From a virus: a DNA stretch of 49,363 nt. The notes beneath the pieces are model-generated. The model saw nothing but the letters and a program-made list of their open reading frames with translations, did not search any database and had not been told where the DNA came from. Within the stretch, counting starts at the first letter, position 1. Each line of letters starts with the position of its first letter. Positions 5,919 through 27,232 of the stretch are shown here, one piece after another. The stretch lies in IMG/VR virus record IMGVR_UViG_3300037465_000531. One strand, written 5' to 3'. A program made the position numbers and the translations under genes.

Positions 5919-6196
5919 GCCAGCACCGTATGGGCGTAGACGACCCGTCCGTAGGGATCCACTACCCGGGTCGTCCGCCCTTCCTCGATCGCAAGCTGGT
6001 ATGCCCGGGCGGCGGCTTCCTCAATCGACTGGTAGTCGCTGTCGTCGTACCAGTGCTCGCGGTAGATGCACCGGTACTGCACGGTGTAAATGGAGCCAGC
6101 CGCCCGTGCAATCATCTGCGGCCAGTATACATCAGGTTCTCTTTTTCCGATCCAGAACCGGATTCGTTTTCGGCTGCTGCTGGTCCTCGGCTTCAT
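5915..6196 (-). CDS. Hypothetical protein (alternative start at 6117, MIARAAG...)
   Basis: ORF track. Starting at 6196 overlaps the upstream gene by 65 nt, so the internal ATG 6117 is equally plausible. Confidence 0.6.
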   Translation of the reverse strand: MKPRTSSSRKRIRFWIGKREPDVYWPQMIARAAGSIYTVQYRCIYREHWYDDSDYQSIEEAAARAYQLAIEEGRTTRVVDPYGRVVYAHTVLA

Positions 6197-8039
6197 CCTC
6201 CGACGCCCAGATCTGGTCGGCTGTGAAGAACTCGTGGAGGAAGCGCTCCCACTTCTGCGGAGTCTGCTTCACCACGTCCCAGATCGGAGGGAAGGTTTTG
6301 ATCACCGTGGACACGCTCAGCTCCCCCGCCTCGAGAATGGCGTCATAAATCTGGCGACCGCTGTAGGTGGGACCGAACAGCCCGGCGTCTGTCAGCTCGA
6401 TCAGGCGCTCGGCGTAATCGGCCCCGTTCTCTCCGTCCATGAACGATTTGAGAAGGCTGGGCCTGAGCATTGAAAGCAGGTTGTGGTATTGGGCCATCAT
6501 GTCCGGCTGCTGCTCCTGTTGCTGTGTCTGTTGCTGGTTTGCAGCCGCCTCCGCCGGAGGCGGAGGGACCGGGGCGGACGGCATCACCGGCTGCATCGGC
6601 ACCGGCTGTCCCTGCCCGGTCTTGGCGACCGCGAAGTTGTGCATCGCTGCTGCAAAGGTGGTCCCGAGGATGGTAACCGCCTTGAGGATGTCCGGCAGGT
6701 ACTCGGTCCAGCCGCCCTTGGACGGCTTCTCGTCATCGACGCCGAGCACTTCCCGCAACTGGTCCTTGAACTCGGCCATCTCCTTGAGCATGTCCTTGAG
6801 CGACTGCGGCTGGCTGGGGGCAGGCGCGGCTGCGGAAGCCTCCTGCCGCTTCGCAACGGCCTCCAGCAGCGCCTTCATCTGCTCTTCCTGCGTATGCAGG
6901 CGCTGGTTGGTCATCTGCACCATCTTGTCGACGTAGTCGCTGTTGACCTTGGTGATGGCGTTGGACATCTCCTTCATCGCCGTCAGGTAGCTGGTAACCA
7001 TCTCCGACGCCTTCTCGTCCGGCTTCGGCAGAAGGTCCTTGATCGCGCCCACCGTCTCGGCGATCAGCTTGGTGGGGTTCTGCTGCTGCTGCTGCAGCTC
7101 CGCAGTCCTCTCGTAAGCTTTCTGCATGATCTGGTTGGCTCCTTCGGTGGCTGTCTGGATCACCGCCACCATGGGCGCGACGGCGGCCATCCCGGGATCG
7201 GACGGGGCGGGCGTCTTGCGCTCGTCCTTCATCAGCCGGTCTGTTAGCTGGGTGTACTGGTTCAACAGGATCTTGGTTACCTCGGACACGTCCTTGTCCT
7301 CCTCGTTCTCGCCTTTCTTCCGCTTCGCGTCGCTTGTTTCCTCCCTGCCGGGCACCGCAATGCCGCGGCTTTCGCACCACTGCACATACCGCTCGTTGTG
7401 GGGGTTGGTCGTGTCCAGTCCGTCCAGATCCAGCAGCGGCGGGTACTCCGTGAGGCTGTAATTGCCGACCATCGTCACCTTGCAGTTGCAGATGGTGCGC
7501 CGCATCTTCTTGCTGGCTCCGGCGTCGTTCATCTTCAGGAAGTAGTCGCCGCAACCGAACAGCTTCAGCAGGTCCTCTTGCGGGAACGGCGCAAACGCCT
7601 TGGTAACCTGCCTCTTGCCTTCGACCATGACCGGCCACAGCCGGTAGATGTAGACGACGACCCGGTCGCGCAGCGCCGGGTCCTCGTAAACCTGCTTCCA
7701 GTACTCCCAGAAGGCCGAGGGACGCCCCCTCGGGTCCTTGTGGTCCGGGTGGAAGTTGGCGGTGAACGGGGGCGGGAACATCTTCATCGGGGGCTTGGGC
7801 TTCGCCTCTTCGTCCAGCCCCCGCAAAAGGCGTGATTTTCGGCTGCGGATTTCCCGCAAGTCGGAAATCGGAGCTTCGCTCTCGCTGCCCCGCGCCTCGG
7901 GCTCGCTGGCTCCCGCCTCTTCCCGGGAAATCAGAGCCGCTTCCTCTTCCCGCTGTTTCTCCATCTGTTCCAACATGATAGCCTCCGCCGGGTCGGGGGG
8001 CGGGGCCGGTTCCGGTGTCGCTTTGTGGTTCGGCATCAT
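6132..8039 (-). CDS. Large hypothetical protein (635 aa) with disordered N-terminus, Gln/Pro-rich linkers and acidic C-terminus
   Basis: GAGGTG precedes ATGATG (8039/8036). ORF codons upstream of that lie in an AT-rich repeat region. No P-loop seen. Confidence 0.75.
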   Translation of the reverse strand: MMPNHKATPEPAPPPDPAEAIMLEQMEKQREEEAALISREEAGASEPEARGSESEAPISDLREIRSRKSRLLRGLDEEAKPKPPMKMFPPPFTANFHPDHKDPRGRPSAFWEYWKQVYEDPALRDRVVVYIYRLWPVMVEGKRQVTKAFAPFPQEDLLKLFGCGDYFLKMNDAGASKKMRRTICNCKVTMVGNYSLTEYPPLLDLDGLDTTNPHNERYVQWCESRGIAVPGREETSDAKRKKGENEEDKDVSEVTKILLNQYTQLTDRLMKDERKTPAPSDPGMAAVAPMVAVIQTATEGANQIMQKAYERTAELQQQQQNPTKLIAETVGAIKDLLPKPDEKASEMVTSYLTAMKEMSNAITKVNSDYVDKMVQMTNQRLHTQEEQMKALLEAVAKRQEASAAAPAPSQPQSLKDMLKEMAEFKDQLREVLGVDDEKPSKGGWTEYLPDILKAVTILGTTFAAAMHNFAVAKTGQGQPVPMQPVMPSAPVPPPPAEAAANQQQTQQQEQQPDMMAQYHNLLSMLRPSLLKSFMDGENGADYAERLIELTDAGLFGPTYSGRQIYDAILEAGELSVSTVIKTFPPIWDVVKQTPQKWERFLHEFFTADQIWASEDEAEDQQQPKTNPVLDRKKRT

Positions 8040-8053
8040 ACACCTCTGCATAG

Positions 8054-8115
8054 GCTCGAAGTCGGAAATCCGAGTATATAGGATTTTCAATCGGTTCGGT
8101 TTTCCGACTTCGAGC
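8054..8115. promoter_or_regulatory. Perfect 15-bp inverted repeat (gctcgaagtcggaaa / tttccgacttcgagc) with a 32-nt AT-rich spacer, in the divergent control region
   Basis: 8054-8068 is the exact reverse complement of 8101-8115. The spacer contains gtatatagg. The 3' arm on the minus strand ends 5 nt before the GAGGTG of gene 8039. Confidence 0.7.
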
Positions 8116-8118
8116 ATA

Positions 8119-8183: not shown

Positions 8184-8852
8184 ATGCCCGGCACCACCTA
8201 CCTGCCCGGCTTCGGAGAGGTGAGGTACGACCTGACCCCGGTCGCCGATTACGGGGACGGCCAGACGTCTGCCGTCATCGGCCTGATGGCGAAGTACGCC
8301 GCCGAAGACAGCGAATCGACGGAAGTGCGTCAGGCGGTTGCCGCTGCACAGCGCCTGTATTCGGGCCTGACGCCGGAAGAGCAGGTCTACCGCTTCGCCC
8401 GCAGCCGCATCCGCTTCATCAACGACGAGGCGCTCAGCCAACCGTTCCAGCGCTGGTATCAGGACTACATCGTCGAAACCCTCATCCGGCCCCGCGACCT
8501 GCTCACCCTGCCCGTGCCCGTGGCGCAGGGCGACTGCGACGACTTCTCCATGCTCGTCGCCTCCATGCTGCTGGCGCAGGGCATCAAGGCCAGCTTCGTC
8601 ACCGTGGCCGCCGACGACCGCGACCCGAACCAGTTCAGCCATGTCTATGTCGCGAGCTACCGCGACGGCAAAAGGTTTCCCATCGATGCCAGCCACGGCC
8701 CCTTCGCCGGATGGGAGGTGCAGGGAGTCTACCGCCGGACGGAGTGGCCCGTCCGCAAGGCAGTCACTCTGGATCTGGACATCGACAGGATGCGGGTTCC
8801 CCTGATCGCGCTTGGCATCATCGGAGCCGTGGTCCTGTCATCGAGGAGATAA
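8184..8852 (+). CDS. Transglutaminase-like (papain-fold) protein with C-terminal membrane anchor
   Basis: Cys-His-Asp in family order: AQGDCDDFSMLVASML ... FSHVYVASY ... FPIDASH. C-terminus VPLIALGIIGAVVLSSRR. No SD; TACAAT ends 9 nt before the ATG. Confidence 0.6.
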   Translation: MPGTTYLPGFGEVRYDLTPVADYGDGQTSAVIGLMAKYAAEDSESTEVRQAVAAAQRLYSGLTPEEQVYRFARSRIRFINDEALSQPFQRWYQDYIVETLIRPRDLLTLPVPVAQGDCDDFSMLVASMLLAQGIKASFVTVAADDRDPNQFSHVYVASYRDGKRFPIDASHGPFAGWEVQGVYRRTEWPVRKAVTLDLDIDRMRVPLIALGIIGAVVLSSRR

Positions 8853-8858
8853 AGACTC

Positions 8859-9173
8859 ATGATGTACGCCGCGCAGCCGTGCTGCCAAGGATTAGCGGGA
8901 AGCTGGACCGACTGGTTCCAGTCCATCACCCAAGGGTGGAGCCAGACCGGCCAGCAGATCCTGCTCAATCAGAACCAGCCGCTGGTCATGGAGACCGGAG
9001 CTGGGGGAACGAAGGTCTACCAGACGGGGCCCGGCACCCCGGGTGCCGTGCTGCCAACACAACCATCCACGCCGGAGCGCGTCGTGCAGAGCAGCTTCTC
9101 GGGGCTATCGCTCCTGATTCTCGGCGGCGTAGCTCTGATTCTGCTGCTCAGAACACAAGGAGAAGGAGACTGA
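8859..9173 (+). CDS. Tail-anchored membrane protein
   Basis: No signal peptide. C-terminus LSLLILGGVALILLLRTQGEGD. Confidence 0.7.
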   Translation: MMYAAQPCCQGLAGSWTDWFQSITQGWSQTGQQILLNQNQPLVMETGAGGTKVYQTGPGTPGAVLPTQPSTPERVVQSSFSGLSLLILGGVALILLLRTQGEGD

Positions 9174-9177
9174 AACC

Positions 9178-9552
9178 ATGCCACTGCGAGTAAAGAACAT
9201 CGCTGCCGGATACTACGATTCCACGGGCTTCCACCCGATCCGGGCGTCTCAGGACTACGACCCGGGGCGCATCGGAGAAGCGGAGAAGTACAAAACCGCG
9301 AAGGGAAAGAAAGGCGCGAAGGGAAAGGCCAAGCGTGCGGCGGAGGTAGCCCGCACCAGCCGCGCGGCGCGGGCGACCCTGAAGCGGGCCTCCGGGCGCA
9401 GGAAGCGGGGAGAGGCGGCGCTCGAAGCCGCCAAGGCGGCGAAGAAGGCGGCCAAGCGGAAGAAGAATCCGATTCCCACCAACCGCTACGTCACGGCCAA
9501 GATCAAGCGTACGCGCAGCGGCGATCTGAAAGTCATCCTTCCCTTGAGGTAG
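9178..9552 (+). CDS. Highly basic Lys/Arg/Ala-rich protein (nucleic-acid-binding-like)
   Basis: KTAKGKKGAKGKAKRAAEVARTSRAARATLKRASGRRKRGEAALEAAKAAKKAAKRKKNP. Confidence 0.7.
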   Translation: MPLRVKNIAAGYYDSTGFHPIRASQDYDPGRIGEAEKYKTAKGKKGAKGKAKRAAEVARTSRAARATLKRASGRRKRGEAALEAAKAAKKAAKRKKNPIPTNRYVTAKIKRTRSGDLKVILPLR

Positions 9553-9555
9553 CTC

Positions 9556-10290
9556 ATGGCGCTTCGGCATCCGGTGCTCGGCGAATACGTCCCGTCAGTA
9601 GAAGACGTCGTCCTGCCGGACTACTCCGGCGGCGACTACTCGACGTGGCAGTCCGGCACCGCTGCGGCTTCTGGTGTCCTTGCCTCCGGCGTGGCGTCCG
9701 GCGCTCCGCTCGACGTCACGGCTGTCAATGCTGCGGGCGCAGCCCTAACCACGGCTGCGCCCACTTTTATGTCGGCAACCACCGCAGCAATCGCCATCCC
9801 GGTCATCGGCGCGGCGGTCGCCGGGGTCACCTTCTGGCTGATGCGGAACCGGTTGAACAACATCCGCAAGGAGAAGGCCACCCAGATCGTCAACGACGCC
9901 GAAGCCAAGATGAAGGAGAATCTGCAAGGCTATCTCAGCGGCCCTCGCACGATCTCCAGCCAGCGTCAGGCGCTGGCCAACTTCGACGCGCTGTGGGAGC
10001 ACATCGTGCAGGGTTGCACCGCCGTGGGCGGCGACCCGGGCCGCCGGTGCATCGAGGAGCGGCAGCGGGGAGGCAGCGCCCCGTGGTGCCCGACCGGCAC
10101 CGGCTGCGATTATTTCACGCTCTACCGCGACCCCATCGCCAACGACACGCCGCGCCCCGACCCGGTGCAGGCGACCATCGATCCTCTGACCGGCGAGATG
10201 GTTTCGTTCACCGGCGGCGGGCTGCTGCTGCCGTTGCTGCTGGCCGGTGCCGGGGTCCTGCTTCTGGTGTCGCGGAAGGAGGAAGAGTAG
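9556..10290 (+). CDS. Membrane protein with internal TM and C-terminal anchor
   Basis: AIAIPVIGAAVAGVTFWLM internal. C-terminus GGGLLLPLLLAGAGVLLLVSRKEEE. Confidence 0.75.
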   Translation: MALRHPVLGEYVPSVEDVVLPDYSGGDYSTWQSGTAAASGVLASGVASGAPLDVTAVNAAGAALTTAAPTFMSATTAAIAIPVIGAAVAGVTFWLMRNRLNNIRKEKATQIVNDAEAKMKENLQGYLSGPRTISSQRQALANFDALWEHIVQGCTAVGGDPGRRCIEERQRGGSAPWCPTGTGCDYFTLYRDPIANDTPRPDPVQATIDPLTGEMVSFTGGGLLLPLLLAGAGVLLLVSRKEEE

Positions 10291-10292
10291 CC

Positions 10293-10580
10293 ATGCCCAT
10301 GGTTCGCTTGGGATCCGCCGATTGCCAGTGCTTCGCGCCGCCATGCCCGTGCGATATGGAGGTGGTCTACAACGAGTCCGATTGCCCGGTCGGGACGCGT
10401 GCGGAGAGAATCTGGAGCGAGACGGCCCCGGGCACCACGGCGACAACCGTCATGCAGTACCGCTGCATGCCAACGTCTCCTGTCGGCAGCTCTGGCATCC
10501 ACCCGTCGTGGATGCTGATCGGTGCAGCTGCCGTTGCAGTGCTGCTTCTGTTCGGCGGCGGCGAAAAGGAGGACAACTGA
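10293..10580 (+). CDS. Cys-rich tail-anchored membrane protein (95 aa)
   Basis: ADCQCFAPPCPCDMEVVYNESDCP. C-terminus WMLIGAAAVAVLLLFGGGEKEDN. Confidence 0.7.
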   Translation: MPMVRLGSADCQCFAPPCPCDMEVVYNESDCPVGTRAERIWSETAPGTTATTVMQYRCMPTSPVGSSGIHPSWMLIGAAAVAVLLLFGGGEKEDN

Positions 10581-11797
10581 TGCAACTTCCGGTTCAGGGA
10601 AAGTTCGAGGAGCGGCCCGGCTGGGCGCTGCGCCCGGCGTGGGGCCAGCAGTACGGGCGCAGCCAGAGCGGCGGAGGCAAGCCCGTGTGGGGCCAGCAGT
10701 ACGGGCGCAGGGAAGCCGCCGTGGCGCTGCGGCCCGACAGCCCGTGGGCGCGGCAGAACGAGCGGTCCACATGGGGCAGGCAGCGGATGCCGGAGACGCG
10801 GGCGTTCCTGCGTGGACTGGGCGGCTACATCCCAGCCGCTCCGTTCTCCTACAACCCGCTGGAGGACATGAACCTCAAGGCGCAGTGGACGAACCAGTAC
10901 TACGCAAAGTCCGTGGAGTACGCGGACGGTGTGATCGCCGCGCTGCGAAGCATGGGCTTCGACGTTCAGGTGCTCGGCGTCGCCTGCGACCCCGCAGCGG
11001 GATGCCTCGGGATGATGCTCTATTCGGCCATCATCAACAAAGACGGCAAGACCATGGACACCAGCATCGGCAACCCGGTGCGGTACGACTCCCCGCAGCA
11101 GGAGGCGTCGGACATCGCCTACGTCTTCGGGATTTACGCAGTCCCGTCGCAGAGTTTCTCATCAGGGATCAACAACGACGCGCTCGTGCAGGCCGCCACA
11201 GTCCCGTCGTCGACTCCCACCTACGAGCAGTGGCTTCAGACGGCGACGCAAGCGCCTTCCGCGACCACGACGACGGCGACCGCAACCCAGACTACGACTG
11301 CGGCTGCGTCCTACCGCAAGGACGTTCAACTCCTCGCCCCCGACGGCTACCGCACCGGCGGCAGGTTCACCATGAAGATCTGGGGCAGCCCGGGCCAGAC
11401 CGTGGAGATCGAGGCGTGGCAGAACGGGCAGAGCCACGGCAGAAGCGCGTTCGGCACTACGGACGCCAGCGGCTACTACGAGATCTCCGGCTCGTGGCTG
11501 CCGGAGCACGCCGGGCGCTGGCAGGAGAACGTCTATGTCGGTGGCGAGGTCGTCGGCAGGCTGGACTTCGAGCTTGCCAACCCGGCGCAGACGGAACAGC
11601 CGGGCAACGTCACCGTCACGCCGGAGCTGCCTGAGGCCAACCAGCCGCCGCAGCCGGGCAGCGGGACGCCGGGCACCGGCGGCGGAACGATGACGCCGGG
11701 AGTGGTGCCGCCACCGCCGAGCGGAGGCTTCCCTTGGCTGCTGCTTGTCGGCGGCGGTCTGGCGCTGTTTCTCTTGGGAGGGAGCAAGGGCAAATAG
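10580..11797 (+). CDS. Large tail-anchored protein with WGQQYGR repeat, Thr/Ala-rich linker, beta-rich domain and Pro-rich stalk
   Basis: TGATG junction. TTTTATATQTTTAAAS linker. PPQPGSGTPGTGGGTMTPGVVPPPPSGG stalk. C-terminus FPWLLLVGGGLALFLLGGSKGK. Confidence 0.75.
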   Translation: MQLPVQGKFEERPGWALRPAWGQQYGRSQSGGGKPVWGQQYGRREAAVALRPDSPWARQNERSTWGRQRMPETRAFLRGLGGYIPAAPFSYNPLEDMNLKAQWTNQYYAKSVEYADGVIAALRSMGFDVQVLGVACDPAAGCLGMMLYSAIINKDGKTMDTSIGNPVRYDSPQQEASDIAYVFGIYAVPSQSFSSGINNDALVQAATVPSSTPTYEQWLQTATQAPSATTTTATATQTTTAAASYRKDVQLLAPDGYRTGGRFTMKIWGSPGQTVEIEAWQNGQSHGRSAFGTTDASGYYEISGSWLPEHAGRWQENVYVGGEVVGRLDFELANPAQTEQPGNVTVTPELPEANQPPQPGSGTPGTGGGTMTPGVVPPPPSGGFPWLLLVGGGLALFLLGGSKGK

Positions 11798-11798
11798 C

Positions 11799-12263
11799 AT
11801 GTCACCCGGAACCATTGTCTCGGCGCACAACGTGCTCTCCACCGTGCCGGTGAGCGAGCGCTACCTGTCGACATGCTACATGCCGACAAGCGGAGTGCTG
11901 CCGTCTCAGGTGACGTTCCGCATTTTCGTCGGCGGGATGAAGGTTTACGACGGACCGGGGAGCCCGGCGACTCCGACCTGCACCCGGCTTCCGTTCCCGC
12001 AGCAACTGGAAAACGGCGGAGAAGTCCGGGTGCAGGCCCTGCGCGACGGCGTCGTTTTGGCCGAGGACGTATACCATCATCAGGACATCGGGGCTCTGGA
12101 GCGCACGCTGCAGACGGTCGAGGGCACCGCTTCCTCGTTCGACTCACAGAAACTGTTCTTCCTCGTGCTGGTGGCTGCGGCTGTTTGGTTTTTCCTTCTT
12201 CGAGGCGGCGACAAGAAGGACGAAGACAATTTCGACTTCCTGCGGAGGATCAAGGTCAGATGA
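11799..12263 (+). CDS. Tail-anchored membrane protein
   Basis: C-terminal KLFFLVLVAAAVWFFLLRGGDKKDEDNFDFLRRIKVR. Confidence 0.7.
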   Translation: MSPGTIVSAHNVLSTVPVSERYLSTCYMPTSGVLPSQVTFRIFVGGMKVYDGPGSPATPTCTRLPFPQQLENGGEVRVQALRDGVVLAEDVYHHQDIGALERTLQTVEGTASSFDSQKLFFLVLVAAAVWFFLLRGGDKKDEDNFDFLRRIKVR

Positions 12264-12733
12264 ACACCGGATGGATCCTGATTGGCGGAGCGGTGCTGCT
12301 GTTGCTGTTGAACCGGCGACCGTCCCCTGCGACGGCGTCCGCGCCACGGATGCCCGAGACCGGCACCCCGGCTCCCGCGTCCGGGACCGGACAGCCCGCA
12401 GCCGACGCCGCTGGTGCCATGCCTGAGAGCGTGGGCGTCGCGCCGCCGGACGAGGTACTGGAGCAGGCGGCGATTGACCCGGCGAAGGCCTCGCTTGCGG
12501 GGGAGTGGAGGGTCAGCTGGCATGGGTGGAACTACTACCGGGCTCAGGCGGCCATCAAAGCCGGTTTGTGCGCCCCGCCGTGCTCGGAGTACGCGCCGGT
12601 GTTGGGAGAGCGCGTGGGACTGACCGACAATCAGGGCATCACCGCGAGCGAGTACCACGGATACCTCTCCCAGATCGGCATGAGCGGGGTGGCATGGCGG
12701 CGCGTGGCCGCCTACAGGAGGCCGTGGCAATGA
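12260..12733 (+). CDS. N-terminally anchored membrane protein
   Basis: ATGA overlap. MNTGWILIGGAVLLLLLNRRPSP followed by a Pro/Ala-rich linker. Confidence 0.7.
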   Translation: MNTGWILIGGAVLLLLLNRRPSPATASAPRMPETGTPAPASGTGQPAADAAGAMPESVGVAPPDEVLEQAAIDPAKASLAGEWRVSWHGWNYYRAQAAIKAGLCAPPCSEYAPVLGERVGLTDNQGITASEYHGYLSQIGMSGVAWRRVAAYRRPWQ

Positions 12734-13092
12734 TGGTGCGGAGTTCGCTTGGAACGGTTTACGACGACCCGGATCTGTGGATCGGAACGGTGTACGGCGA
12801 CAGCCCCGGATACGACGTGGCCGATTACATTCCTGCGGAGAATGTTCCTGCGTACTCTGTTACTGTCACAGACAGGGCAACGGAAGTGCCTCTCGTCTAC
12901 GCAGACACGTCCTCTTACGTCCTGCCCGGCGCGCAACAACAGACGCCCCATTCTGTCTGGAGCACAGCAGTTGGCGGGCAGATGACGGACGTCGCAAAGC
13001 AGGGACAGAGCCGGAGCCAGAGCGGCTTCGGCATCCCGCTACCGCTGGTGGCGGCGATTGCACTGGGATTGTTCCTCGGGCTGAGGAACTAG
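12730..13092 (+). CDS. Tail-anchored membrane protein
   Basis: ATGA overlap. C-terminus FGIPLPLVAAIALGLFLGLRN. Confidence 0.7.
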   Translation: MMVRSSLGTVYDDPDLWIGTVYGDSPGYDVADYIPAENVPAYSVTVTDRATEVPLVYADTSSYVLPGAQQQTPHSVWSTAVGGQMTDVAKQGQSRSQSGFGIPLPLVAAIALGLFLGLRN

Positions 13093-13104
13093 AGGGTTTC
13101 AGGC

Positions 13105-13284
13105 ATGATGTGCCAACTGCAGACGAACATGCCGGGAGCGGAGGGATGGAATCCGCTGGCGAGTCCTCCGAAGGAGGCTGCCGCCGCGCCGGAGACGAGC
13201 CCGCTGCTGGCGCTCGCTGTGGCCGCCGTCCTGATCCTGATCTTGTTCAGCGGAGGTGAAGCCGATGATGCTGGCTCCGATTAG
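13105..13284 (+). CDS. Small tail-anchored membrane protein (59 aa, below ORF-track cutoff)
   Basis: MMCQLQTNMPGAEGWNPLASPPKEAAAAPETSPLLALAVAAVLILILFSGGEADDAGSD. Same TM-GG-acidic tail as neighbours. Confidence 0.55.
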   Translation: MMCQLQTNMPGAEGWNPLASPPKEAAAAPETSPLLALAVAAVLILILFSGGEADDAGSD

Positions 13285-13558
13285 ACTTGGCGAAACGACG
13301 GATCCCTGCGGATCCGACTCGACCATGTGGGTGGTCATGAAGAGCACGGAGAACGGGAAGTGCTTCAACGTCTGCGTGGCGGACCCGACACAGATGTTCG
13401 AGGTCAGTTGCCCGGAGGCTGGCATCGAGACCGGAGGCATCAAGCCGAAGACTCCGAACCAGAGTCCGATGTCCGGTCAGACGATCATCCAAGGCGTGCC
13501 CAACTGGGTCGTCATCGGCGGAGCTGCTGTGCTGGGAGTGCTGCTGGCCAACAGGTGA
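13265..13558 (+). CDS. Cys-containing tail-anchored membrane protein
   Basis: GGAGG 8 nt before ATG 13265 (ORF track starts at GTG 13256). C-terminus VPNWVVIGGAAVLGVLLANR. Confidence 0.7.
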   Translation: MMLAPIRLGETTDPCGSDSTMWVVMKSTENGKCFNVCVADPTQMFEVSCPEAGIETGGIKPKTPNQSPMSGQTIIQGVPNWVVIGGAAVLGVLLANR

Positions 13559-13560
13559 TC

Positions 13561-13902
13561 ATGATGGAGAACCGCACCGGACGTCTGGATCTGTTGCTGC
13601 TCGGCATCGTCGAGCGGATCGCCAGCCGGGACCCTGTCTACGCGGCGGTGTACCAGACGTTCGAGCCGGAGATTCGAGCCGCGCTCGGCAATCTGGACTC
13701 CCCGCGCCTGCGCCGGGCGGTCAAGGCGCTGGCTTCCGGCGGCAGGGAGCAGGCTCGAGTAACGGGGAAGAGGAAAGAGGCCGAGCGCAAGCCGAAGACG
13801 GCTGCGCCCCGCAGGAAGAAGGCTGCGTTCAAAGCGCAGGTGCGAATCGCCAAGCCCAGCACGGAGCCGGTCGAGGTTGTGGAGGCAGAATGGGTCTCGT
13901 AG
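13561..13902 (+). CDS. Hypothetical protein with basic C-terminal half
   Basis: MMENRTGRLDLLLLGIVERIAS...KRKEAERKPKTAAPRRKKAAFKAQVRIAK. Confidence 0.65.
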   Translation: MMENRTGRLDLLLLGIVERIASRDPVYAAVYQTFEPEIRAALGNLDSPRLRRAVKALASGGREQARVTGKRKEAERKPKTAAPRRKKAAFKAQVRIAKPSTEPVEVVEAEWVS

Positions 13903-14375
13903 CTAAAGTCAGGATGGGAGCGTACCCGGAGGATCCGTACTACGATCCGAACCGGCCGTCGTGGCTGCCTTACTGGATCGACACTCCAACGGAATCCTAC
14001 CGGAAGTACAAGTACTATCTTTACGAGCTTCCAGCCACTGCGGACAAGCCGTACCCGGATCCGAATCCGCCTCCGGCTCCGTCGAGCCCGTCCAGCTTGG
14101 ATCTGGAGCATCAGCTGAGGACCGGGGACGTCGGGTCGTTCACCCCTGCCGACCAACTGAATCAGGATCGGTCTGCGTGGAACCAGTGGCGGCAGACCGC
14201 GATCCCCGAGACTCCGCTGGAAGCGCTGCGGAGGCAGGAAGAGGAAGAGAAAAAGCGGTCCGAGGAGGGCGGCCTGCCTCTCTGGGCGTGGCTGCTGATC
14301 ATCGGCGGCGGAGCTCTGGCGCTGGTCGTGGCGCTGAAGCCCAACATGCCTAGCGTAAGTTTCGGTTCGAGGTGA
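13890..14375 (+). CDS. Pro/Tyr-rich tail-anchored membrane protein
   Basis: C-terminal GGLPLWAWLLIIGGGALALVVALKPNMPSVSFGSR. Confidence 0.7.
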   Translation: MGLVAKVRMGAYPEDPYYDPNRPSWLPYWIDTPTESYRKYKYYLYELPATADKPYPDPNPPPAPSSPSSLDLEHQLRTGDVGSFTPADQLNQDRSAWNQWRQTAIPETPLEALRRQEEEEKKRSEEGGLPLWAWLLIIGGGALALVVALKPNMPSVSFGSR

Positions 14376-14379
14376 AACT

Positions 14380-14904
14380 ATGCCGTTCATCAACGTACAT
14401 CCCGCGCCGGGCCTAGGGGAGCTGACTCCGGGCTGGTTCATCGTGCCCAACAATCCGTTCCAGCTGCGACAGCCCGTGGCACGCACCACAGGCGTCGGCG
14501 AACTGGTCGCGGCGCACTGGACGCTGCCGCAGAATCCGCTGGCCAATCAACTGGCCACCATCGGCCTGCCCCCGGGGCAGAGTTCCCAGAAGGCGGTCAT
14601 ACAGGGGCTCGGTGCAATCGATCTCGGTTCGGAGTTCTCCTCGTGGGCGAATCCGGGCGAGTGGACGTTCAGCCAGTGGGCTCTGGTGATCGGCGTTGGC
14701 GCTCTGTTCCTTCTCACCATGCGGAAGGACCGCGCCGGTTACAAGGCCGCCAAGCTGCAAGCGAAAGCGGACTACTACCGCGCGTTGCAGGATGCGAGGT
14801 CGAAGCACAAGACTCTGGGCGGAAGAGCCGTCGACTACGCGAGGGAGCGGCGGGCGGCGGCTGCCGCTGCGGCTGCGAGGGCGGCTGTGGTTGCGGAGGG
14901 CTGA
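14380..14904 (+). CDS. Membrane protein with single TM followed by a basic helical tail
   Basis: WTFSQWALVIGVGALFLLTMRKDRAGYKAAKLQAKADYYRAL... Confidence 0.7.
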   Translation: MPFINVHPAPGLGELTPGWFIVPNNPFQLRQPVARTTGVGELVAAHWTLPQNPLANQLATIGLPPGQSSQKAVIQGLGAIDLGSEFSSWANPGEWTFSQWALVIGVGALFLLTMRKDRAGYKAAKLQAKADYYRALQDARSKHKTLGGRAVDYARERRAAAAAAAARAAVVAEG

Positions 14905-14905
14905 C

Positions 14906-15487
14906 ATGCCGGGCTACTACTTGATCGACGACCGGACCAAGACGATCACTCCCGTGACCGAGGAGGACTACGAGGAGCGCCGCCGGATCGAAAGCTCGAC
15001 CCGGCGCATCGTGCCCGCCTACAGCAGCGAGGTGCAGCGTTACCTGCGGATGGGCTACCGGCTGAAGAACCCCTACATGGGCTTTCGCAAGCTGGTGTCC
15101 GCGCTCAGGAAACGGGGCGCGGAAGACGCGCGGGCGCTGGCGGCGTGGATCGGGCGGCGGAAGTACGGCAAGGAGCGGTTCCAGAAGATGGCCGCCGATG
15201 GCCGGAGACGGAATCCCGGGTCGCCTGCCGAGGCCTACGAATACATGGTCACGCTGCATGACCGCTCCGGCCATCTTGTGGAGGCCGGGCACGCGGCTTC
15301 TCTGGCCGACGCGGCCAAGTACGCGTCCCGATCCGACGTCATCCGTGACGGTTACTTCGCCTTCTGGCGCGGGGGCAGGCAGATCGCTGGAGGCAAGTTC
15401 CGTTCCGGCATGAGCGAGGACCGCTGGGCCGAGGCGTTCGCCCGTGGCGGCATCCAGTGGAGACCGAAGCGGAGAAAGGAGGCTTGA
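14906..15487 (+). CDS. Hypothetical basic protein
   Basis: In-frame ATG 2 nt after the upstream stop. Contains RLKNP and GRRRNPGSP motifs. Confidence 0.7.
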   Translation: MPGYYLIDDRTKTITPVTEEDYEERRRIESSTRRIVPAYSSEVQRYLRMGYRLKNPYMGFRKLVSALRKRGAEDARALAAWIGRRKYGKERFQKMAADGRRRNPGSPAEAYEYMVTLHDRSGHLVEAGHAASLADAAKYASRSDVIRDGYFAFWRGGRQIAGGKFRSGMSEDRWAEAFARGGIQWRPKRRKEA

Positions 15488-16710
15488 TGGCGATCAACCT
15501 GAAGACTGCTGGCGGAGACTCGGCGGTCTGGACTGCTCGCGGGGGCAGCCGCCCGTTGGACAGCGGGGACGTCGCTCATCTGGATTTCGAGGCGGCGGTC
15601 GAGCTGCTGCGGATGCTGGGGTTCCGTGTGCGGAATCCGAGGAAGAAGGGCGGCGGGGAAGAAGGAGGAGCCCAGAAATGGGATGACATCTCCAGCGCTA
15701 AGGTGGAGCAGCTGATCAACTCGTCGGACCTTCAGGAGCGGTTCAAAGCGATCCGGGGAGCGCTTGTGGCCGCCGGGATGGCGAAGTCGAACAGGGAAGT
15801 ATCTTCCATCGTGCTGTGGTCGCCGCGCCGTCTGGCCAACGTGAGCATCAACAGCGGCAACTCGAAAACCGGGCCGACGATGTGCACCAACGTGTCTCAG
15901 GCAAGCTGCCCGGATGGGAGGAACAACGCGAGCGGATTCCGGTGCCCGCTGTACGACTCCGGCTGCTACGCCGAGTGGGGCACGCAATCCTTCGCTCACA
16001 CCAAGCACCTGAACGCGGCTTCCGGCATCAGCAGCAAGGCGACCGGCAAGGACCCGTCTAAGAGCCGCTACACGCCGGAGGACGTGGCCGAGGATGAAGC
16101 CGCCGTGCTTCGCCTCGCCCACCCGTTCTGGCAGCTGCTGCGGCTGAACAACGGCGTGCGCTTGCACGTCGTCGGCGACTGCGTCACTCCGTCCGCTGCG
16201 CGGACCGTGGGCGCTGCGGCCAAGCTCTTCGCCGAGGGACGGTTGACCGGCTCCGGTGTAAGGGAAGGCGGCGCGGCGGACGCGAAAAACGTCTGGAACT
16301 ACACGCATGGCTGGCGCGACGTGCCGCGCTCGGCGTGGCCGTCCGACATCAGCGTGCTGGCAAGCTGCGACACGGTGGACGATCTGGAAGAAGCGCACCG
16401 GCGCGGCTACGGGTCGTGCGTCGTCGTCCCGGAGTACCTGCAGAAGAAAGTCGGCGAGCAGGTTGTCCACTTGGGCAAGGCGATGATGACGGACAACGGG
16501 TTCCGGCTCATTCCCTGCCCGCACGAGGTGGCGGCGAAGAACGAGAAGAACGAGCGCGTCTGGTGCCTTGAGTGCAAGCTGTGCATGAGGGACGACTTCC
16601 TCCACCGCACCAAGAGCGTCATCGCCTTTGCCGCGCACGGAACCAAAAAGGCGCAGCAGACGGCGGCGCAGTTGATCAGCATCGAGGACATGAAAGGAGC
16701 GGCTGACTGA
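15487..16710 (+). CDS. Cys-rich hypothetical protein (407 aa)
   Basis: AAAGGAGG upstream, TGATG junction. NSGNSKTGPTMCTNVSQASCPDGRNNASGFRCPLYDSGCYAEWG and CPHEV...VWCLECKLC clusters suggest metal binding. I recall a similar Cys pattern in a phage family (GP88-like), unverified. Confidence 0.7.
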   Translation: MAINLKTAGGDSAVWTARGGSRPLDSGDVAHLDFEAAVELLRMLGFRVRNPRKKGGGEEGGAQKWDDISSAKVEQLINSSDLQERFKAIRGALVAAGMAKSNREVSSIVLWSPRRLANVSINSGNSKTGPTMCTNVSQASCPDGRNNASGFRCPLYDSGCYAEWGTQSFAHTKHLNAASGISSKATGKDPSKSRYTPEDVAEDEAAVLRLAHPFWQLLRLNNGVRLHVVGDCVTPSAARTVGAAAKLFAEGRLTGSGVREGGAADAKNVWNYTHGWRDVPRSAWPSDISVLASCDTVDDLEEAHRRGYGSCVVVPEYLQKKVGEQVVHLGKAMMTDNGFRLIPCPHEVAAKNEKNERVWCLECKLCMRDDFLHRTKSVIAFAAHGTKKAQQTAAQLISIEDMKGAAD

Positions 16711-18080
16711 TGGGCAAGCTGGAAAACTTTTACCGTTCCCTCGGCGTTCCCACTGTGAAGAACCCCTCCAGCAGCGAGGGCCGGGAGCTCGACCGCAAGG
16801 TGCGGGCGATCATGAACTATATCGACCGCCACGGCAAGGGTTACTTTGAATCCTTGTCGGACATCAACGCGCTGCTCGACCGCACCGCATCAGCCGCCGG
16901 TCTCAGCATGGTGGACTACGTCAACACCGCCGTTCCGTACGACCGGACGGTGAGCCTTCTGCTGGCGACGTCGGATCCCAACGTGTTCGTCCATGTGTCG
17001 ATCTACCGCATGCCGAGCGGGCGCTACGAGCTGGTGGCCTACCCCACCCGGGACTCGCTGCGGAAGCGCGGTCTGCAGGGCAAGAGAAGAAACCCTGCGG
17101 GCGACATGGAGGATGCTCTGGCCAACTACATCGCCCACAACGTCTACTGGAAGCTGCAGGAGGAGGCTGAACAGAGCGCGGGGATGAAGCCGGAGCACCG
17201 GGTGCCGATCCGCAGCGGGGTGGTGTTCGTGGCGAAGGTGGAGGCCTACGAGCCCGGACTCGGTCTGGCTCTTTCTGTCTGGACGGAGCGGGAAGAGGGC
17301 GTTCCGGAAAGCGAGGTACACCATCTGACGTGGAGGCAGTTCAGGACCCGGTTTGTCGATTCCTCCACTCTGGAGCCTCTGGTCGACGCACTGCACTATG
17401 CACTCCATCACGGGACTCTTAGCGGGTACCCCGGGTCCGGAGCGGAGGGGGAAGAGCCCGCACCTGTGCGGCAGAACCCTTCGATCCGTCTGGAGCGGAA
17501 CCCCGAGGGCGGGGGCGAGGAGCAGGAGCCCGTGGAGGAGTCCTACTCGGCTGGCGTGGAAGAGGTGCCGGAGCTGGAGGACAGCTACGAGGAAGCCGAG
17601 AAGGTATATGAAACCTTCCACGGCAGGGACAGCGACGAGGAGGTCGTCGTCGAGGAGGCGTTCGCGGTCAGGGACAATCTGGCCGCGCTCGGCATCCTGC
17701 AAGAGCTGTCTCTGACATCGCCCGCGAAGGTGAAGTTCAAGGTCGCCTTCGAGGACGACCAGCCGCTGTTGTGCTCCAGCGTCGATTCTCTGCAGCTCTA
17801 TATCATCGGCGGGGACCAGTCCATCGACGACGATACGCTGCTTGAGATCCTCGACGGGGACCAAGAGGCGGCCAACAAGGACAAGGTGCTGCTCGGCGTT
17901 CTGGACACGCTGGTGTACCAGACCGAGAAGGACTTCGACAATTTCGAAACCATCGACTACGAGCACGAGCTCGGAGAGGACGGCGGCTTCCAGCCCGCCG
18001 TCGTCTACGACCGGGTGAACAGACAGCTTGAGCTCGTCGGTGGGTCGTACAAGATCAAGCGGGAGGGAATCGTCAACTGA
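16710..18080 (+). CDS. Hypothetical protein (456 aa) with acidic central linker
   Basis: TGATG junction. KRRNPAG, VRQNPSIRLERNPEGGGEE motifs. C-terminal domain ...YETFHGRDSDEE...LYIIGGDQ...YEHELGEDGGFQPAVVYD...LVGGSYKIKREGIV. Confidence 0.75.
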   Translation: MGKLENFYRSLGVPTVKNPSSSEGRELDRKVRAIMNYIDRHGKGYFESLSDINALLDRTASAAGLSMVDYVNTAVPYDRTVSLLLATSDPNVFVHVSIYRMPSGRYELVAYPTRDSLRKRGLQGKRRNPAGDMEDALANYIAHNVYWKLQEEAEQSAGMKPEHRVPIRSGVVFVAKVEAYEPGLGLALSVWTEREEGVPESEVHHLTWRQFRTRFVDSSTLEPLVDALHYALHHGTLSGYPGSGAEGEEPAPVRQNPSIRLERNPEGGGEEQEPVEESYSAGVEEVPELEDSYEEAEKVYETFHGRDSDEEVVVEEAFAVRDNLAALGILQELSLTSPAKVKFKVAFEDDQPLLCSSVDSLQLYIIGGDQSIDDDTLLEILDGDQEAANKDKVLLGVLDTLVYQTEKDFDNFETIDYEHELGEDGGFQPAVVYDRVNRQLELVGGSYKIKREGIVN

Positions 18081-18138
18081 TGGTCGCCCTTCCCTTGATA
18101 TCCGCCATTGCGCGGAAACCACAGAAAGGAGAAACCGA

Positions 18139-19673: not shown

Positions 19674-20102
19674 ATGCGATACAACCCCTACGCTCCACCG
19701 GCCATCCGGGGGCTCGGACAGACAGAGGACAAGGCCTACATCGACATCCCACGGTTCCACCGCATCGAGGTGTCGATGTCGGCGAGCGAATTCATCCGCG
19801 ATCGGGCGAGCGAGTTCAGCGACGAGGGGGACTTCATCCTCCGCGCCATCAGCGTGGCGTCGTTCACCGGCGCGTTCAGCGTGCAATTCACCGACGCCAA
19901 CGGCTACGCGATGTCGAACACGCTGATCAACCACTACGCCTTCCTCGGGGCGAGCAACAGCCCGGTGCCGTTCGTGATCTTCCCGGAAGTGGTGTTCCCC
20001 AAGAGCAGCAAGATCAGCTTGAACATCCTCAACCTGACGACGTCGGCCAACACCGTGATCTTCCTGTTGCACGGAGTGATGCGGGCGCAGGCGCTCAGGT
20101 AA
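19674..20102 (+). CDS. Small beta-rich protein, one copy of the recurrent ~130-aa unit (single-jelly-roll-like; penton candidate)
   Basis: DFILRAISV..FTDANGY..PFVIFPEVVFPKSSKISLNILNLT..VIFLLHGVMR parallels both halves of gene 20115. Confidence 0.5.
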   Translation: MRYNPYAPPAIRGLGQTEDKAYIDIPRFHRIEVSMSASEFIRDRASEFSDEGDFILRAISVASFTGAFSVQFTDANGYAMSNTLINHYAFLGASNSPVPFVIFPEVVFPKSSKISLNILNLTTSANTVIFLLHGVMRAQALR

Positions 20103-20114: not shown

Positions 20115-20939
20115 ATGGATTACTTCGACCTGCCGTTTTACTACGTCTACGACGCCTCGGGGCTGACCAACGGCCAGAGCTACGACGGGCTGGCGATTGC
20201 GGTTGACCGCGACGCGGAATTCCGGCTGCGGGCCGTGCTCGGCGTCAATCTGGTCTGCTCCGGCGGGATGTACTTCTACGACGGCGACGGGAAGCCCGCG
20301 ACGCCGCGCGGATTCATCCATCCGGGCGACCAGCCGCTGCTGGTGCAGCCGGAGATCGTCTATCCGCCAGCCGGTCAGATCCGGTTCTCTCTGTCGAACG
20401 TGCAGCGTGCGGCGCACAACTACACCGGCACGCAGAAGGCATATTACAGCCGCCTGTGCTTCTACGGCGTGAAGCGGTTCACCGGCGAACGCGCCCGGTC
20501 GATGCTCGATCAGCAGAAAGCCTCGGCGGCCTTCCGCCACTTCCCGTACCAGAATCGGAACGACCTGACCGTGAGCATCTACAGCCACGTCAGCCCGGGC
20601 TTCACGCAGGAGGAAGCGCCGCGCCAGTTCCGGGTCGAGGTGGACAACTACGGCTACGACTGGTTCGCTCTCGCGGGCGAGCCGGATCTGCTCAACAACA
20701 AGCTGCTGCTGATGCCCTACGACTCCAGTAGCACACGGCAGCTGGCGAGCGACTATGTGCCGTCGGCATTCCTCGCGTGGCGTCCGTACCGGCCATGGGC
20801 GTGCTTCCCGTCGGTTCCCCTGTTCTTCCCGGCCAACGGCATTCTGCGGCTGGACTGGATGAGCCGGTACACGGACGCCGACACGCTGCCTGCAACCGTG
20901 CCGATCACATTGATCGGGGCACGGAGGATCGGATGCTGA
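20115..20939 (+). CDS. Internally duplicated beta-rich protein (274 aa), two copies of the unit (double-jelly-roll-like capsid candidate)
   Basis: Half 1: AEFRLRAVLGV..FYDGDGK..LLVQPEIVYPPAGQIRFSLSNV..LCFYGVKR. Half 2: YDWFALAGE..MPYDSSS..PLFFPANGILRLDWMS..ITLIGARR. Confidence 0.5.
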   Translation: MDYFDLPFYYVYDASGLTNGQSYDGLAIAVDRDAEFRLRAVLGVNLVCSGGMYFYDGDGKPATPRGFIHPGDQPLLVQPEIVYPPAGQIRFSLSNVQRAAHNYTGTQKAYYSRLCFYGVKRFTGERARSMLDQQKASAAFRHFPYQNRNDLTVSIYSHVSPGFTQEEAPRQFRVEVDNYGYDWFALAGEPDLLNNKLLLMPYDSSSTRQLASDYVPSAFLAWRPYRPWACFPSVPLFFPANGILRLDWMSRYTDADTLPATVPITLIGARRIGC

Positions 20940-22787: not shown

Positions 22788-22794
22788 GGACGAG

Positions 22795-24840: not shown

Positions 24841-24841
24841 C

Positions 24842-26046: not shown

Positions 26047-26047
26047 C

Positions 26048-26614: not shown

Positions 26615-27232
26615 ATGGCGACCTACAAGGATCTGGCTGACGCCATCATCCAGCAGGAGGGAGCGTTCAACCCGCGCAGCGTCAACATGCGGCTGGTTAC
26701 CCAGCACGGGCTCTGGAACGTCGGCCATCTGGAATGGCGCAGCCAGCGCGGCGCTGTGCCGGTCGACATCAACGGGCGGCTGTGGGCCGGGTGGCCCAGC
26801 TACGAGGACTCCTACGACGGACTCCTGCGCCAGCTCTGGCTCTACGTTGGCAGAGGCCTGACTCTGGAGCAGATGATCTACAAGTACGCTCCCCCGCAGG
26901 AAAACTACACTGAAAAGTACATCGCCTTCGTCAGCTCGCGCACCGGCATCCCCCGCGACGGCAGGCTAGCAGACTACCTGCCGGAGGAAACCTACTTCCA
27001 GTACGCGGGGCGCAAGGCCGACCAGACGCCAACGCCGGACAGACCGTCGCCTCCCGCAGAATCAGCCGTGCCGGAGCAGGTATCCGGGTGGCCCCTCCCT
27101 CTCCTCACCGACGCCGGGGACGAATCCGCCGAGCCCGGCGTCGAAACCGCAGAACTCGGCGGATCAGCCGGAGCCTTCATCCTCCTCGCCGCAGTCGGAG
27201 CAGCAGCGGCAATCCTCCTCAAACGAGGGTGA
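26615..27232 (+). CDS. SLT/GH23-like lytic transglycosylase with C-terminal membrane anchor
   Basis: LADAIIQQEGAFNPRSVN...TQHGLWNVG resembles the SLT motif (..ES-gfnP.a.s..GA.GLMQ). GGAGGTG RBS. C-terminus GGSAGAFILLAAVGAAAAILLKRG. Confidence 0.5.
   Translation: MATYKDLADAIIQQEGAFNPRSVNMRLVTQHGLWNVGHLEWRSQRGAVPVDINGRLWAGWPSYEDSYDGLLRQLWLYVGRGLTLEQMIYKYAPPQENYTEKYIAFVSSRTGIPRDGRLADYLPEETYFQYAGRKADQTPTPDRPSPPAESAVPEQVSGWPLPLLTDAGDESAEPGVETAELGGSAGAFILLAAVGAAAAILLKRG

Follow-up and report, generated by a model that had tools for sequence, protein, structure and literature searches.

Tail-anchored membrane proteins encoded in a 49-kb viral genome and their proposed relation to tailless phages with an internal membrane

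The closest described systems to the one treated here are the phages SSIP-1, PM2 and PRD1, all of which have membrane-protein sets comparable to it. SSIP-1 is a T=49 phage with an internal membrane, a 44-kb circular genome and two types of capsid protein (PMC6356626, PMC6260650). In PM2, whose genome is circular as well, the capsomers are brought into register by the transmembrane proteins P3 and P6, and the shell may form around the genome; PRD1 is assembled via a virus-specific patch of the host inner membrane (PMC6356626). The present analysis deals with the virus record IMGVR_UViG_3300037465_000531 of IMG/VR, a stretch of 49,363 nucleotides (the window in what follows), and in particular with a block of coupled genes at positions 8184-15487, many of whose products carry a predicted transmembrane helix at the extreme C-terminus. 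On computational evidence the block is taken to encode the membrane proteins of an icosahedral phage that has no tail but an internal lipid membrane, its architecture being of the SSIP-1/PM2/PRD1 type, a reading to which a probability of about 0.65 is given. The arrangement is an enlarged variant of the design known from those three phages.

The two ends of the window are identical (bases 1-127 equal 49237-49363, 100% over 127 bases), and it therefore represents a complete genome of 49,236 bp, circular or assembled as a circle, with a guanine-plus-cytosine (GC) content of 64%. Genes were called from codon-position GC and the length of the open reading frames (ORFs). From 8184 to 18080 they form a single plus-strand operon with no break, in which a Shine-Dalgarno sequence stands upstream of almost every start and the intergenic distances range from -20 to +12 nt. 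The genes of the anchored proteins are accordingly read as co-transcribed with structural genes.

Ten coupled genes of this operon (8184, 8859, 9556, 10293, 10580, 11799, 12730, 13105, 13265 and 13890, spanning 8184-14375) encode proteins with a predicted C-terminal transmembrane helix, in each case one uncharged hydrophobic stretch of at least 15 residues ending 2-21 residues from the C-terminus. For the helix search, hydropathy was scanned on the Kyte-Doolittle scale (windows of 15, 17 and 19 residues) and on a simplified Hessa scale, and uncharged hydrophobic stretches of at least 15 residues were recorded. Such ends occur in 10 of the 15 genes of the block and in 1 of the 43 genes elsewhere (Fisher p = 5.7e-7), the single gene outside, with the small holin-like 26181 left aside, being 26615. 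At a cut-off of 1.5 kcal/mol on the simplified Hessa-type scale, six of the ten helices and that of 26615 fall below, those of 12730 and 10580 are borderline, and those of 8184 and 13265 score weakly because their hydrophobic stretches are short. A single helix no more than about 30 residues from the C-terminus, with no N-terminal signal or anchor, was found in the products of the ten block genes and of 26615 (9556 has one helix beyond its tail anchor), and not in those of 14380 and 12260. Altogether twelve membrane proteins are predicted between 8184 and 14904, in addition to that of 26615.

In the first 35 residues of the ten anchored proteins the highest 9-residue hydropathy is at most 1.24, as against 2.7-3.6 in the signal peptides of the proteins encoded at 4803 and 5245; since these two carry textbook signal peptides, the phage uses such peptides where export is intended. 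The GC content at third codon positions (GC3) of the ten ORFs is 0.71-0.87 and most of them have orthologues in the related contigs L001, L003, L005 or L007, which, together with the ribosome-binding sites and the short gaps, upholds the view of an earlier note on this DNA that the listed ORFs are real and tightly coupled genes. The same note had described the anchored proteins as lacking N-terminal signal peptides, the product of 12260 as anchored at its N-terminus, 26615 as carrying the same C-terminal anchor and the N-terminal domains as unrelated, and on all these points the present data agree with it; in BLASTP comparisons among the N-terminal domains only the hydrophobic helices align, and there is no detectable paralogy. 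A DNA repeat search found no shared tail cassette, only GCTGCTG-type runs of Leu, Ala and Gly codons. The array proteins gave no match in Pfam and PHROGs except a weak transglutaminase match of 8184, and none was obtained with NCBIfam for 8184 and the other key proteins scanned.

The anchor pattern is real and far beyond chance, with three corrections to what had been proposed. The array had been taken to contain eleven C-terminally anchored genes, which holds for ten of them; in the eleventh, 14380, the helix (residues 96-114) is followed by a basic tail of 60 residues. The run had been called consecutive, and the coupling is indeed tight, but three soluble and highly basic proteins (9178-9552, 13561-13902 and 14906-15487), missing from the earlier list, are interspersed. 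Finally, a shared C-terminal module of helix, GG and charged residues had been proposed as a common sorting signal. GG directly follows the helix in only 4 of the 10 tails, no sequence motif is common to them, and in nine of the ten anchored genes the final 1-4 codons contain the best Shine-Dalgarno match for the start of the gene that follows, so that neither the module nor the signal can be maintained. The tail residues encoded in this way are RR, EGD, KEE, KED, KG, GGE and SR: AGGAG is read as RR, AAGGAG as EGD, AAGGAGG as KEE or KED, GGAGGTG as GGE and GAGGTGA as SR. The KED of 10293 is encoded by AAGGAGG, the ribosome-binding site of 10580, the GGE of 13105 by GGAGGTG, that of the overlapping gene 13265, and the EGD of 8859 likewise by the Shine-Dalgarno sequence of the following gene. 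The same placement accounts for the ends KEA, KGA and AEG of soluble proteins in the operon. The tails of L005, where ribosome-binding sites are frequently found in the small gaps between genes, consist for the most part of plain K/R. The Gly and acidic character of the tails is therefore largely an imprint of translational coupling, and since the next gene's Shine-Dalgarno sequence sets the last codons, the feature left at the protein level is a generic tail anchor, that is, a helix and a short polar or basic tail. Over 8184-16710 nearly every downstream Shine-Dalgarno sequence falls within the last 1-4 upstream codons, which gives the false look of a shared protein motif. Caution is thus needed in tightly coupled operons, where recurrent C-terminal "motifs" of Gly, Glu, Lys and Arg can be due to the ribosome-binding site of the gene that follows.

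The first gene of the block (8184..8852, plus strand) encodes a transglutaminase-like Cys-His-Asp peptidase of 222 residues, with a helix at 205-219 and an RR tail. The transglutaminase-like assignment, which had been made earlier from the sequence, is confirmed by a match to Pfam Transglut_core (E 2e-4), by homology to the SSIP-1 structural protein gp34 (BLASTP, 24% over 144 residues, E 8e-8, with the catalytic DCD...HVYV aligned) and by the triad C118, H153 and D168, invariant in 40 family sequences including gp34. The family has 243 members, mostly of 200-300 residues; their contigs reach 45-75 kb, and a C-terminal hydrophobic helix with a basic tail is present in most of the members inspected. 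SSIP-1 gp34, annotated as a structural protein, itself passes the Pfam Transglut_core threshold and is C-terminally anchored. It is one of nine such proteins in SSIP-1 (gp34, 35, 39, gp41 and 42, and further downstream 50, 52, gp53 and 54), three of which, gp34, gp41 and gp53, are annotated as structural. These nine, together with P3, P8 and gp j of PM2 and P7/P14 and P22 of PRD1, overturn the statement of the earlier note that no phage gene cluster of this kind was known.

The comparison with SSIP-1 (record JN880423, L006 in our numbering; statements on its virion are drawn from the GenBank notes and two reviews) showed that both phages have a circular double-stranded DNA genome of similar size (43.8 kb in SSIP-1, 49.2 kb in the window) with integrase-like genes, a structural block with a series of C-terminally anchored proteins, the first of which is an anchored transglutaminase-like Cys-His-Asp protein, and paralogous small beta-rich proteins in the capsid region, gp45/gp46 in SSIP-1 and 19674/20115 in the window. 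The paralogy of gp45 and gp46 is consistent with the two capsid protein types of SSIP-1. In contrast, the SSIP-1 pair consists of two separate proteins of about 210 residues, whereas the window encodes one fused double-domain and one single-domain protein; for the 2319-residue gp43 and the virion RecA-like ATPase gp40 of SSIP-1 no counterpart was detected in the window; and the host of SSIP-1 is a halophilic member of the Bacteroidota, whereas relatives of the window genome are found in metagenome-assembled genomes (MAGs) of Terriglobia. Beyond 8184 and gp34 no BLASTP match to SSIP-1 was found, profile comparisons (hhalign and hidden Markov models, HMMs) of five structural families with SSIP-1 gp44-gp49 and ORF56 gave no match, and a search of IMG/VR for relatives of SSIP-1 returned SSIP-1 alone. 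Judged from sequence, SSIP-1 is an architectural analogue with one homologous hallmark gene and not a close relative. Two further resemblances were discarded: the ending "...GIVN" of a 456-residue protein of the window recalls "...GILN" of gp43, but the HMM of its C-terminal domain misses gp43 and the likeness is held to be coincidental, and the BFVD entry I1ZBI0 (256 residues, the length of gp47), matched by a first low-confidence model, could not be confirmed as SSIP-1 gp47. Inside the anchored block of SSIP-1, the structural protein gp40 (24775-25737) resembles RecA/KaiC-like ATPases (Pfam AAA_25, E 5e-11) and is by its sequence a candidate packaging enzyme of that phage.

A second link to membrane-containing phages is given by the gene 26615..27232 (plus strand), outside the block, the product of which is a peptidoglycan-hydrolase-like protein of 205 residues with a helix at 188-202 and the tail KRG. 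It matches the PHROG families of endolysin, tape-measure and injection transglycosylases (E 3e-7 to 6e-3), and its residues 83-127 show 49% identity (E 2e-11) to residues 88-128 of the PM2 structural protein P5, the two proteins having a motif of 45 residues in common. With PM2 the window genome shares its circular double-stranded DNA, and the double jelly-roll capsid protein P2 of PM2 has 269 residues, as compared with 274 in the candidate described below. P3, P8 and gp j of PM2 have, like the array proteins, one terminal helix and a short basic tail. The registration of capsomers by transmembrane proteins and the co-assembly with a circular genome in PM2 also fit the window genome. The PM2 genome is, however, five times smaller (10 kb), its anchored proteins are few and short, and it has a putative ATPase, P9. 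The likeness to PRD1 lies in a compact late block of small membrane proteins (P7/P14, P11, P16, P18, P20, P22, P32 and P34 were compared), which make up about half of the PRD1 virion protein species. The transglycosylase P7/P14 has, as 26615 does, a helix near its C-terminus, and P22 is also built like the array proteins. Unlike the array proteins, the membrane proteins of PRD1 are mostly anchored N-terminally or centrally, and its linear genome, terminal protein, protein-primed polymerase and packaging ATPase P9 are absent from the window.

Tail-anchored proteins are also known in bacteria, e.g. those of the ElaB/YqjD type in E. coli, which have no signal peptide, a helix at the extreme C-terminus and a short polar or basic tail. 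The likeness of the array proteins to this type, with a soluble N-terminal domain and a terminal helix, would imply post-translational insertion from the cytoplasm. Cellular tail-anchored proteins are encoded by scattered single genes, whereas here ten unrelated cargo domains are found in one viral operon.

The putative capsid gene is 20115..20939 (plus strand), which encodes a candidate major capsid protein of 274 residues, consisting of two homologous beta-sandwiches joined by a helix. An AlphaFold2 model built from 108 sequences, which replaced an earlier one from 6 sequences with a predicted local distance difference test score (pLDDT) of 63, reached a pLDDT of 94.9 and a predicted template-modelling (TM) score of 0.92. 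The two halves align with each other by hhalign with a probability of 99% (E 4e-18). Just upstream, 19674..20102 (plus strand) encodes a single beta-sandwich protein of 142 residues, a candidate penton or second capsid protein, which is homologous to each half of 20115 (N-terminal half, hhalign probability 98%, E 4e-14; C-terminal half, E 1e-12; BLASTP E 5e-4). In Foldseek searches of the PDB the 20115 model matched the capsid proteins of PBCV-1 (Vp54), PR772/PRD1 (P3), phiCjT23, STIV and Melbournevirus with E values from 3e-4 to 6e-3, and its best viral fold matches are double jelly-roll capsid proteins. The model suggests that 20115 is likely, but not proven, to be a capsid protein of the double jelly-roll type. 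Its family comprises 276 representative clusters; a PDB sequence search with the 108-sequence profile was negative. A colinear alignment of 20115 with PM2 P2 was non-significant and was not used as evidence. The pair 19674/20115 looks like a record, at the sequence level, of the duplication and fusion that led from a single to a double beta-barrel. A further pair of paralogues in this region is formed by the 177-residue protein 21841-22374 and the C-terminal 120 residues of the 305-residue protein 24842-25759 (38% identity, E 4e-18), and the same pairing is found in L005 between proteins of 197 and 624 residues. The shared domain may be a vertex or spike base domain, and on sequence grounds it is a further penton candidate.

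On the contigs of relatives a common layout was found, with a large minus-strand gene, the transglutaminase-like gene, a run of small genes, a DUF7227 protein and the "...GIVN" protein. It is kept in L001 (72% identity), L003 (46%, 58% GC) and L005 (41%, a 54.8-kb contig), in which nearly every member of the run has a terminal hydrophobic helix; L007 (61 kb) and L008 (64 kb), which were found via the 8184 family, have the same start of the block. The large minus-strand gene (620-708 residues) occupies the same place beside the transglutaminase-like gene in L003, L005, L007 and L008. Relatives with as little as about 30% identity still show the anchor pattern. A core conserved out to L005 or L007 comprises 8184, 8859, 9178, 9556, 12260, 13265, 13561, 14380 and 14906, and 10293, 12730 and 13890 are lineage-specific. 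Only 11 relatives of the protein encoded at 16710-18080, downstream of the block, were detectable among 5.8 billion proteins, and the layout described was read from their contigs. More distant relatives of the structural module also lie inside two large MAG contigs of Terriglobia (Acidobacteriota), L011 (JBGPPK010000002.1, 642 kb) and L012 (DASZFU010000164.1, 206 kb), each with four anchored proteins directly upstream of a "...KREGIVN" protein and jelly-roll-like genes. From their sequence context these loci are probably integrated prophages and would provide the first host assignment, to Acidobacteriota, for the wider group. Together with the integrase of the window they suggest that at least some of these phages are temperate and infect Acidobacteria.

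The possibility has to be weighed that the genome belongs to a tailed phage with head and packaging genes that have diverged beyond recognition, the anchored proteins being non-virion or ejection proteins that serve to remodel the host membrane, to exclude superinfection, to control lysis or to form a trans-envelope DNA channel. It draws on the structural module, where more than 200 tailed phages encode homologues of the 134-residue protein 22383 (phrog_644), some of which, in mycobacteriophages, are annotated as minor tail subunit, and where the tandem paralogues 22795 and 23806 (phrog_2448) match, in Sphingomonas phage Kimi, the gene that comes right after the tape-measure gene, as well as genes of Brevundimonas and Caulobacter siphophages; the hydrolase motif of 26615, too, occurs in tape-measure and tail-injection proteins. 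Receptor-binding modules are, however, commonly shared between tailed and tailless phages, and 22383, 22795 and 23806 look like exchangeable host-recognition modules. The explanation is an unlikely one, because the genome is complete and among its called proteins no terminase, portal, HK97 capsid or tape-measure protein, and in the structural module no prohead protease, was found with Pfam, PHROGs and NCBIfam, although the large terminase subunit and the portal are usually the easiest to detect. Moreover, no ORF has the length or the repeats expected for a tape-measure protein, the proteins between 6132 and 29035 contain no Walker A motif save one chance match in 22383, and the conserved 274-residue protein is a two-beta-sandwich protein without the HK97 fold. 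The ATPases of the window are those of replication and recombination (2134, 32144 and 35115) and a MoxR-like AAA protein (42031), none of them in the structural module. A plasmid-like or conjugative element, in which the anchored proteins would belong to a secretion or mating apparatus, is very improbable: a ParB-like protein, an integrase and a lytic transglycosylase-like protein occur on such elements too, yet no VirB4, VirD4 or relaxase-type ATPase was found in the library scans, and the holin- and spanin-like pair, the jelly-roll-like paralogues, the homologues of phage tail or spike modules and a relative in IMG/VR all argue for a virus. The modules at 22383-24840 are apparently common to tailed phages and this apparently tailless genome.

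Two other explanations bear on the anchors themselves. The tails could be a dedicated sorting signal processed by the co-encoded transglutaminase-like peptidase, with cleavage or cross-linking of the sortase or exosortase kind after targeting to the membrane. For this speak the constant position of the peptidase gene, which opens the block in the window, L001, L003, L005, L007, L008 and SSIP-1, the anchor and invariant triad of the peptidase itself, and the GG beside the helix in several tails, which resembles double-glycine processing sites. A hydrophobic helix followed by a charged tail on diverse cargo is also what the LPXTG/sortase, PEP-CTERM/exosortase and GlyGly-CTERM/rhombosortase systems have in common with the array. 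An N-terminal signal peptide, a conserved signature motif ahead of the helix and a cognate enzyme are all required in those systems, and none of these was found for the array; no sortase, exosortase or rhombosortase is encoded according to the Pfam, PHROGs and NCBIfam scans, and the GG of the array tails stands after the helix, not before it. Since a conserved tail motif is missing both within the window and between orthologues, since the Shine-Dalgarno sequences account for the GG and charged residues, on soluble proteins of the operon as well, and since the SSIP-1 tails lack GG after the helix and those of L005 are mostly plain K/R, such a signal is held to be quite unlikely. Least credible of all is an artefact of composition, by which Ala/Gly/Leu/Val-rich stretches would arise easily at 64% GC from mis-called ORFs or starts. 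The helices are indeed rich in Gly, Ala and Leu, codon runs are the only DNA repeats between them, and 10293, 12730 and 13890 have no detectable orthologue; but 42 of the 43 genes outside the block have the same composition without such an end, the position, length and lack of charge of the helix are kept in orthologues at 30-85% identity and in the relative of 58% GC, and GC3 and the ribosome-binding sites support the gene calls.

A virus-associated membrane of the PRD1/PM2 type was also the interpretation favoured in the earlier note. It is supported by a complete genome in which no tailed-phage hallmark was detected, the capsid-like protein, the links to gp34 and P5 and the comparable anchored sets of known phages. 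Several observations weigh against it. The global TM-scores of 20115 to double jelly-roll capsid proteins are only 0.19-0.23, non-viral two-sandwich proteins (e.g. peptidylglycine monooxygenase) score equally well, and the capsid profiles gave no hhalign match to PM2 P2, PRD1 P3/P31 or SSIP-1 gp44-48, nor to SSIP-1 49, 56 and gp45+46. An FtsK/HerA-type packaging ATPase was not found in the genome, and the virion ATPase gp40 of SSIP-1 is without a counterpart in the block. The products of 22383, 22795 and 23806 have homologues in tailed phages only, the homology to SSIP-1 consists of one enzyme domain that was possibly transferred horizontally, and the sequence derives from a metagenome and not from an isolate. 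Finally, most tails have a basic residue right after the helix, for which the positive-inside rule alone favours the topology opposite to that proposed here.

If the block is nevertheless the membrane-protein complement of a tailless phage, the following course may be proposed. Late in infection the coupled operon would give rise to about ten proteins in which the C-terminal helix is the sole membrane determinant. As there is no signal peptide, post-translational insertion from the cytoplasmic side of the host inner membrane is expected, and the functional N-terminal domains would stay in the cytoplasm; the basic residues that follow helix 1 in 9556 and the N-terminal helix in 12260 would place the large domains of these two proteins there as well. 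A virus-specific patch of membrane would then be pinched off while capsomers assemble, which would leave the N-terminal domains exposed on the outside of the vesicle, in the space between membrane and capsid, where they could register the capsomers and carry entry functions as components of the virion. The 8184 peptidase and the 26615 hydrolase would be candidates for a role like that of PRD1 P7 in cell-wall penetration during entry, and the basic proteins 9178, 13561 and 14906 and the Arg-rich 18136 for linking the circular genome to the membrane or condensing it there; all these roles of individual proteins are putative. The packaging ATPase is the main missing hallmark, and a PM2-like co-assembly around the circular genome could serve in its place.

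No description matching this lineage was found in the literature, and it appears to be undescribed. It is possible, although at slightly less than even odds, that it is a large lineage at the level of a family or higher, made up of temperate tailless membrane phages of about 45-75 kb with a virion proteome rich in tail-anchored proteins and a capsid fusion preserved in sequence; its estimated size follows from the 276 clusters of the capsid protein and the at least 243 homologues of the anchored peptidase. Membrane-containing tailless phages are thought to be under-sampled, and to our knowledge SSIP-1 is the only isolate with a genome above 40 kb. If the interpretation is correct, an anchored transglutaminase-like peptidase followed by a tail-anchored run, beside jelly-roll paralogues, would be a genomic signature that allows such phages to be sought in metagenomes without recognition of their capsid protein. 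About ten unrelated cargo domains on one generic tail anchor would be a natural set for studies of delivery and sorting to viral membrane patches in bacteria. The group would reach the Acidobacteria, a phylum that is dominant in soil and for which very few viruses are known. On the wider reading of a large lineage, at least ten unrelated cargo domains would be present in the virion, along with a Cys-His-Asp peptidase packaged in it. On that reading the step from a single to a double jelly-roll by duplication and fusion, so far inferred, as far as we know, from structures only, would be preserved at detectable sequence similarity, and this record of capsid duplication may be of interest for research on capsid evolution by itself.

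The remaining genes of the block, all on the plus strand, are as follows. The tail-anchored protein of 104 residues at 8859..9173 (helix 83-97, tail RTQGEGD; orthologues in L001, L003 and L005) precedes a soluble Lys/Arg-rich protein of 124 residues at 9178..9552, which has no hydrophobic segment, a conserved C-terminus KKNPIPTNRY...KVILPLR and counterparts in L001, L003, L005 and L007. The membrane protein of 244 residues at 9556..10290 has helices at 77-93 and 224-238 and the tail SRKEEE; its first helix is followed by a basic flank, a four-Cys domain and the C-terminal helix, and residues 76-231 are kept out to L005 and L007. The gene at 10293..10580 encodes a Cys-rich tail-anchored protein of 95 residues (helix 74-88, tail GGGEKEDN), for which no orthologue was found in the relatives compared. 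It is followed by the largest tail-anchored protein, of 405 residues (10580..11797; helix 387-401, tail GGSKGK; orthologues in L001 and L003), with a Thr-rich linker and a Pro-rich stalk, and by one of 154 residues (11799..12263) in which the helix at 119-133 precedes a charged tail of 21 residues. The N-terminally anchored protein of 157 residues (12260..12733) has its helix at residues 3-17, then NRR, and is kept out to L005. Further tail-anchored proteins are a Tyr/Pro/Asp-rich one of 120 residues (12730..13092; helix 104-118, tail RN), one of 59 residues (13105..13284; helix 34-48, tail SGGEADDAGSD), a Cys-containing one of 97 residues (13265..13558; helix 81-95, tail NR), kept out to L005, and, after a soluble basic protein of 113 residues inside the block (13561..13902; orthologues in L001, L003 and L007), a Pro/Tyr-rich one of 161 residues (13890..14375; helix 135-149, tail of 12 residues). 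The membrane protein of 174 residues at 14380..14904, with its central helix and basic C-terminal region, is conserved in L003, L005 and L007, and a soluble basic protein of 193 residues with an RRRNP motif (14906..15487) is the last gene ahead of the DUF7227 protein. Divergent to the array, the minus-strand gene 6132..8117 encodes a protein of 661 residues with no family or solved-structure match; PDB sequence searches with this protein and with that of 456 residues were negative. Adjoining it, the minus-strand genes 4803-5240 and 5245-5601 encode the two small proteins with classical N-terminal signal peptides.

Outside the operon, library matches identified a replication and recombination set with a ParB-like protein (1367-2137), helicases at 2134 and 32144, an AAA_24 protein at 35115 and an ERCC4 nuclease, together with a tyrosine integrase (29035-29664); a holin- and spanin-like lysis pair lies at 25753-26396. 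No tRNA genes were found in the window. A family A DNA polymerase is split into a part with uracil-DNA glycosylase and 3'-5' exonuclease (37232-38932) and a polymerase part (39427-40836), between which an ORF of about 165 residues with a helix-turn-helix-like segment is inserted (about 38926-39423). Near the MoxR-like AAA ATPase (42031-43122) lies a DUF2201 metallopeptidase/VWA protein (45988-47442), and a VWA_CoxE protein is also present in the relative L008. The genes 39-581 and 47789-48535, close to the circular junction, are paralogues (37% identity over the last 60 residues). A contig of 98,579 bp with the same proteins has about twice the unit length and may be a concatemer assembly. The motif [RK][RK]NP occurs 9 times, as against 0.31 expected from shuffles, in the proteins encoded at 9178-9552, 14906-15487, 16710-18080 and 18136-18888 and also at 2134-4299, and may be a site of protease or self-cleavage or a DNA-binding element. 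In the 250-residue protein 18136-18888 five copies form the Arg-rich N-terminal half, the C-terminal half being Gly-rich and hydrophobic, and a relative of 775 residues, P0007, consists of repeated modules separated by NP-containing junctions.

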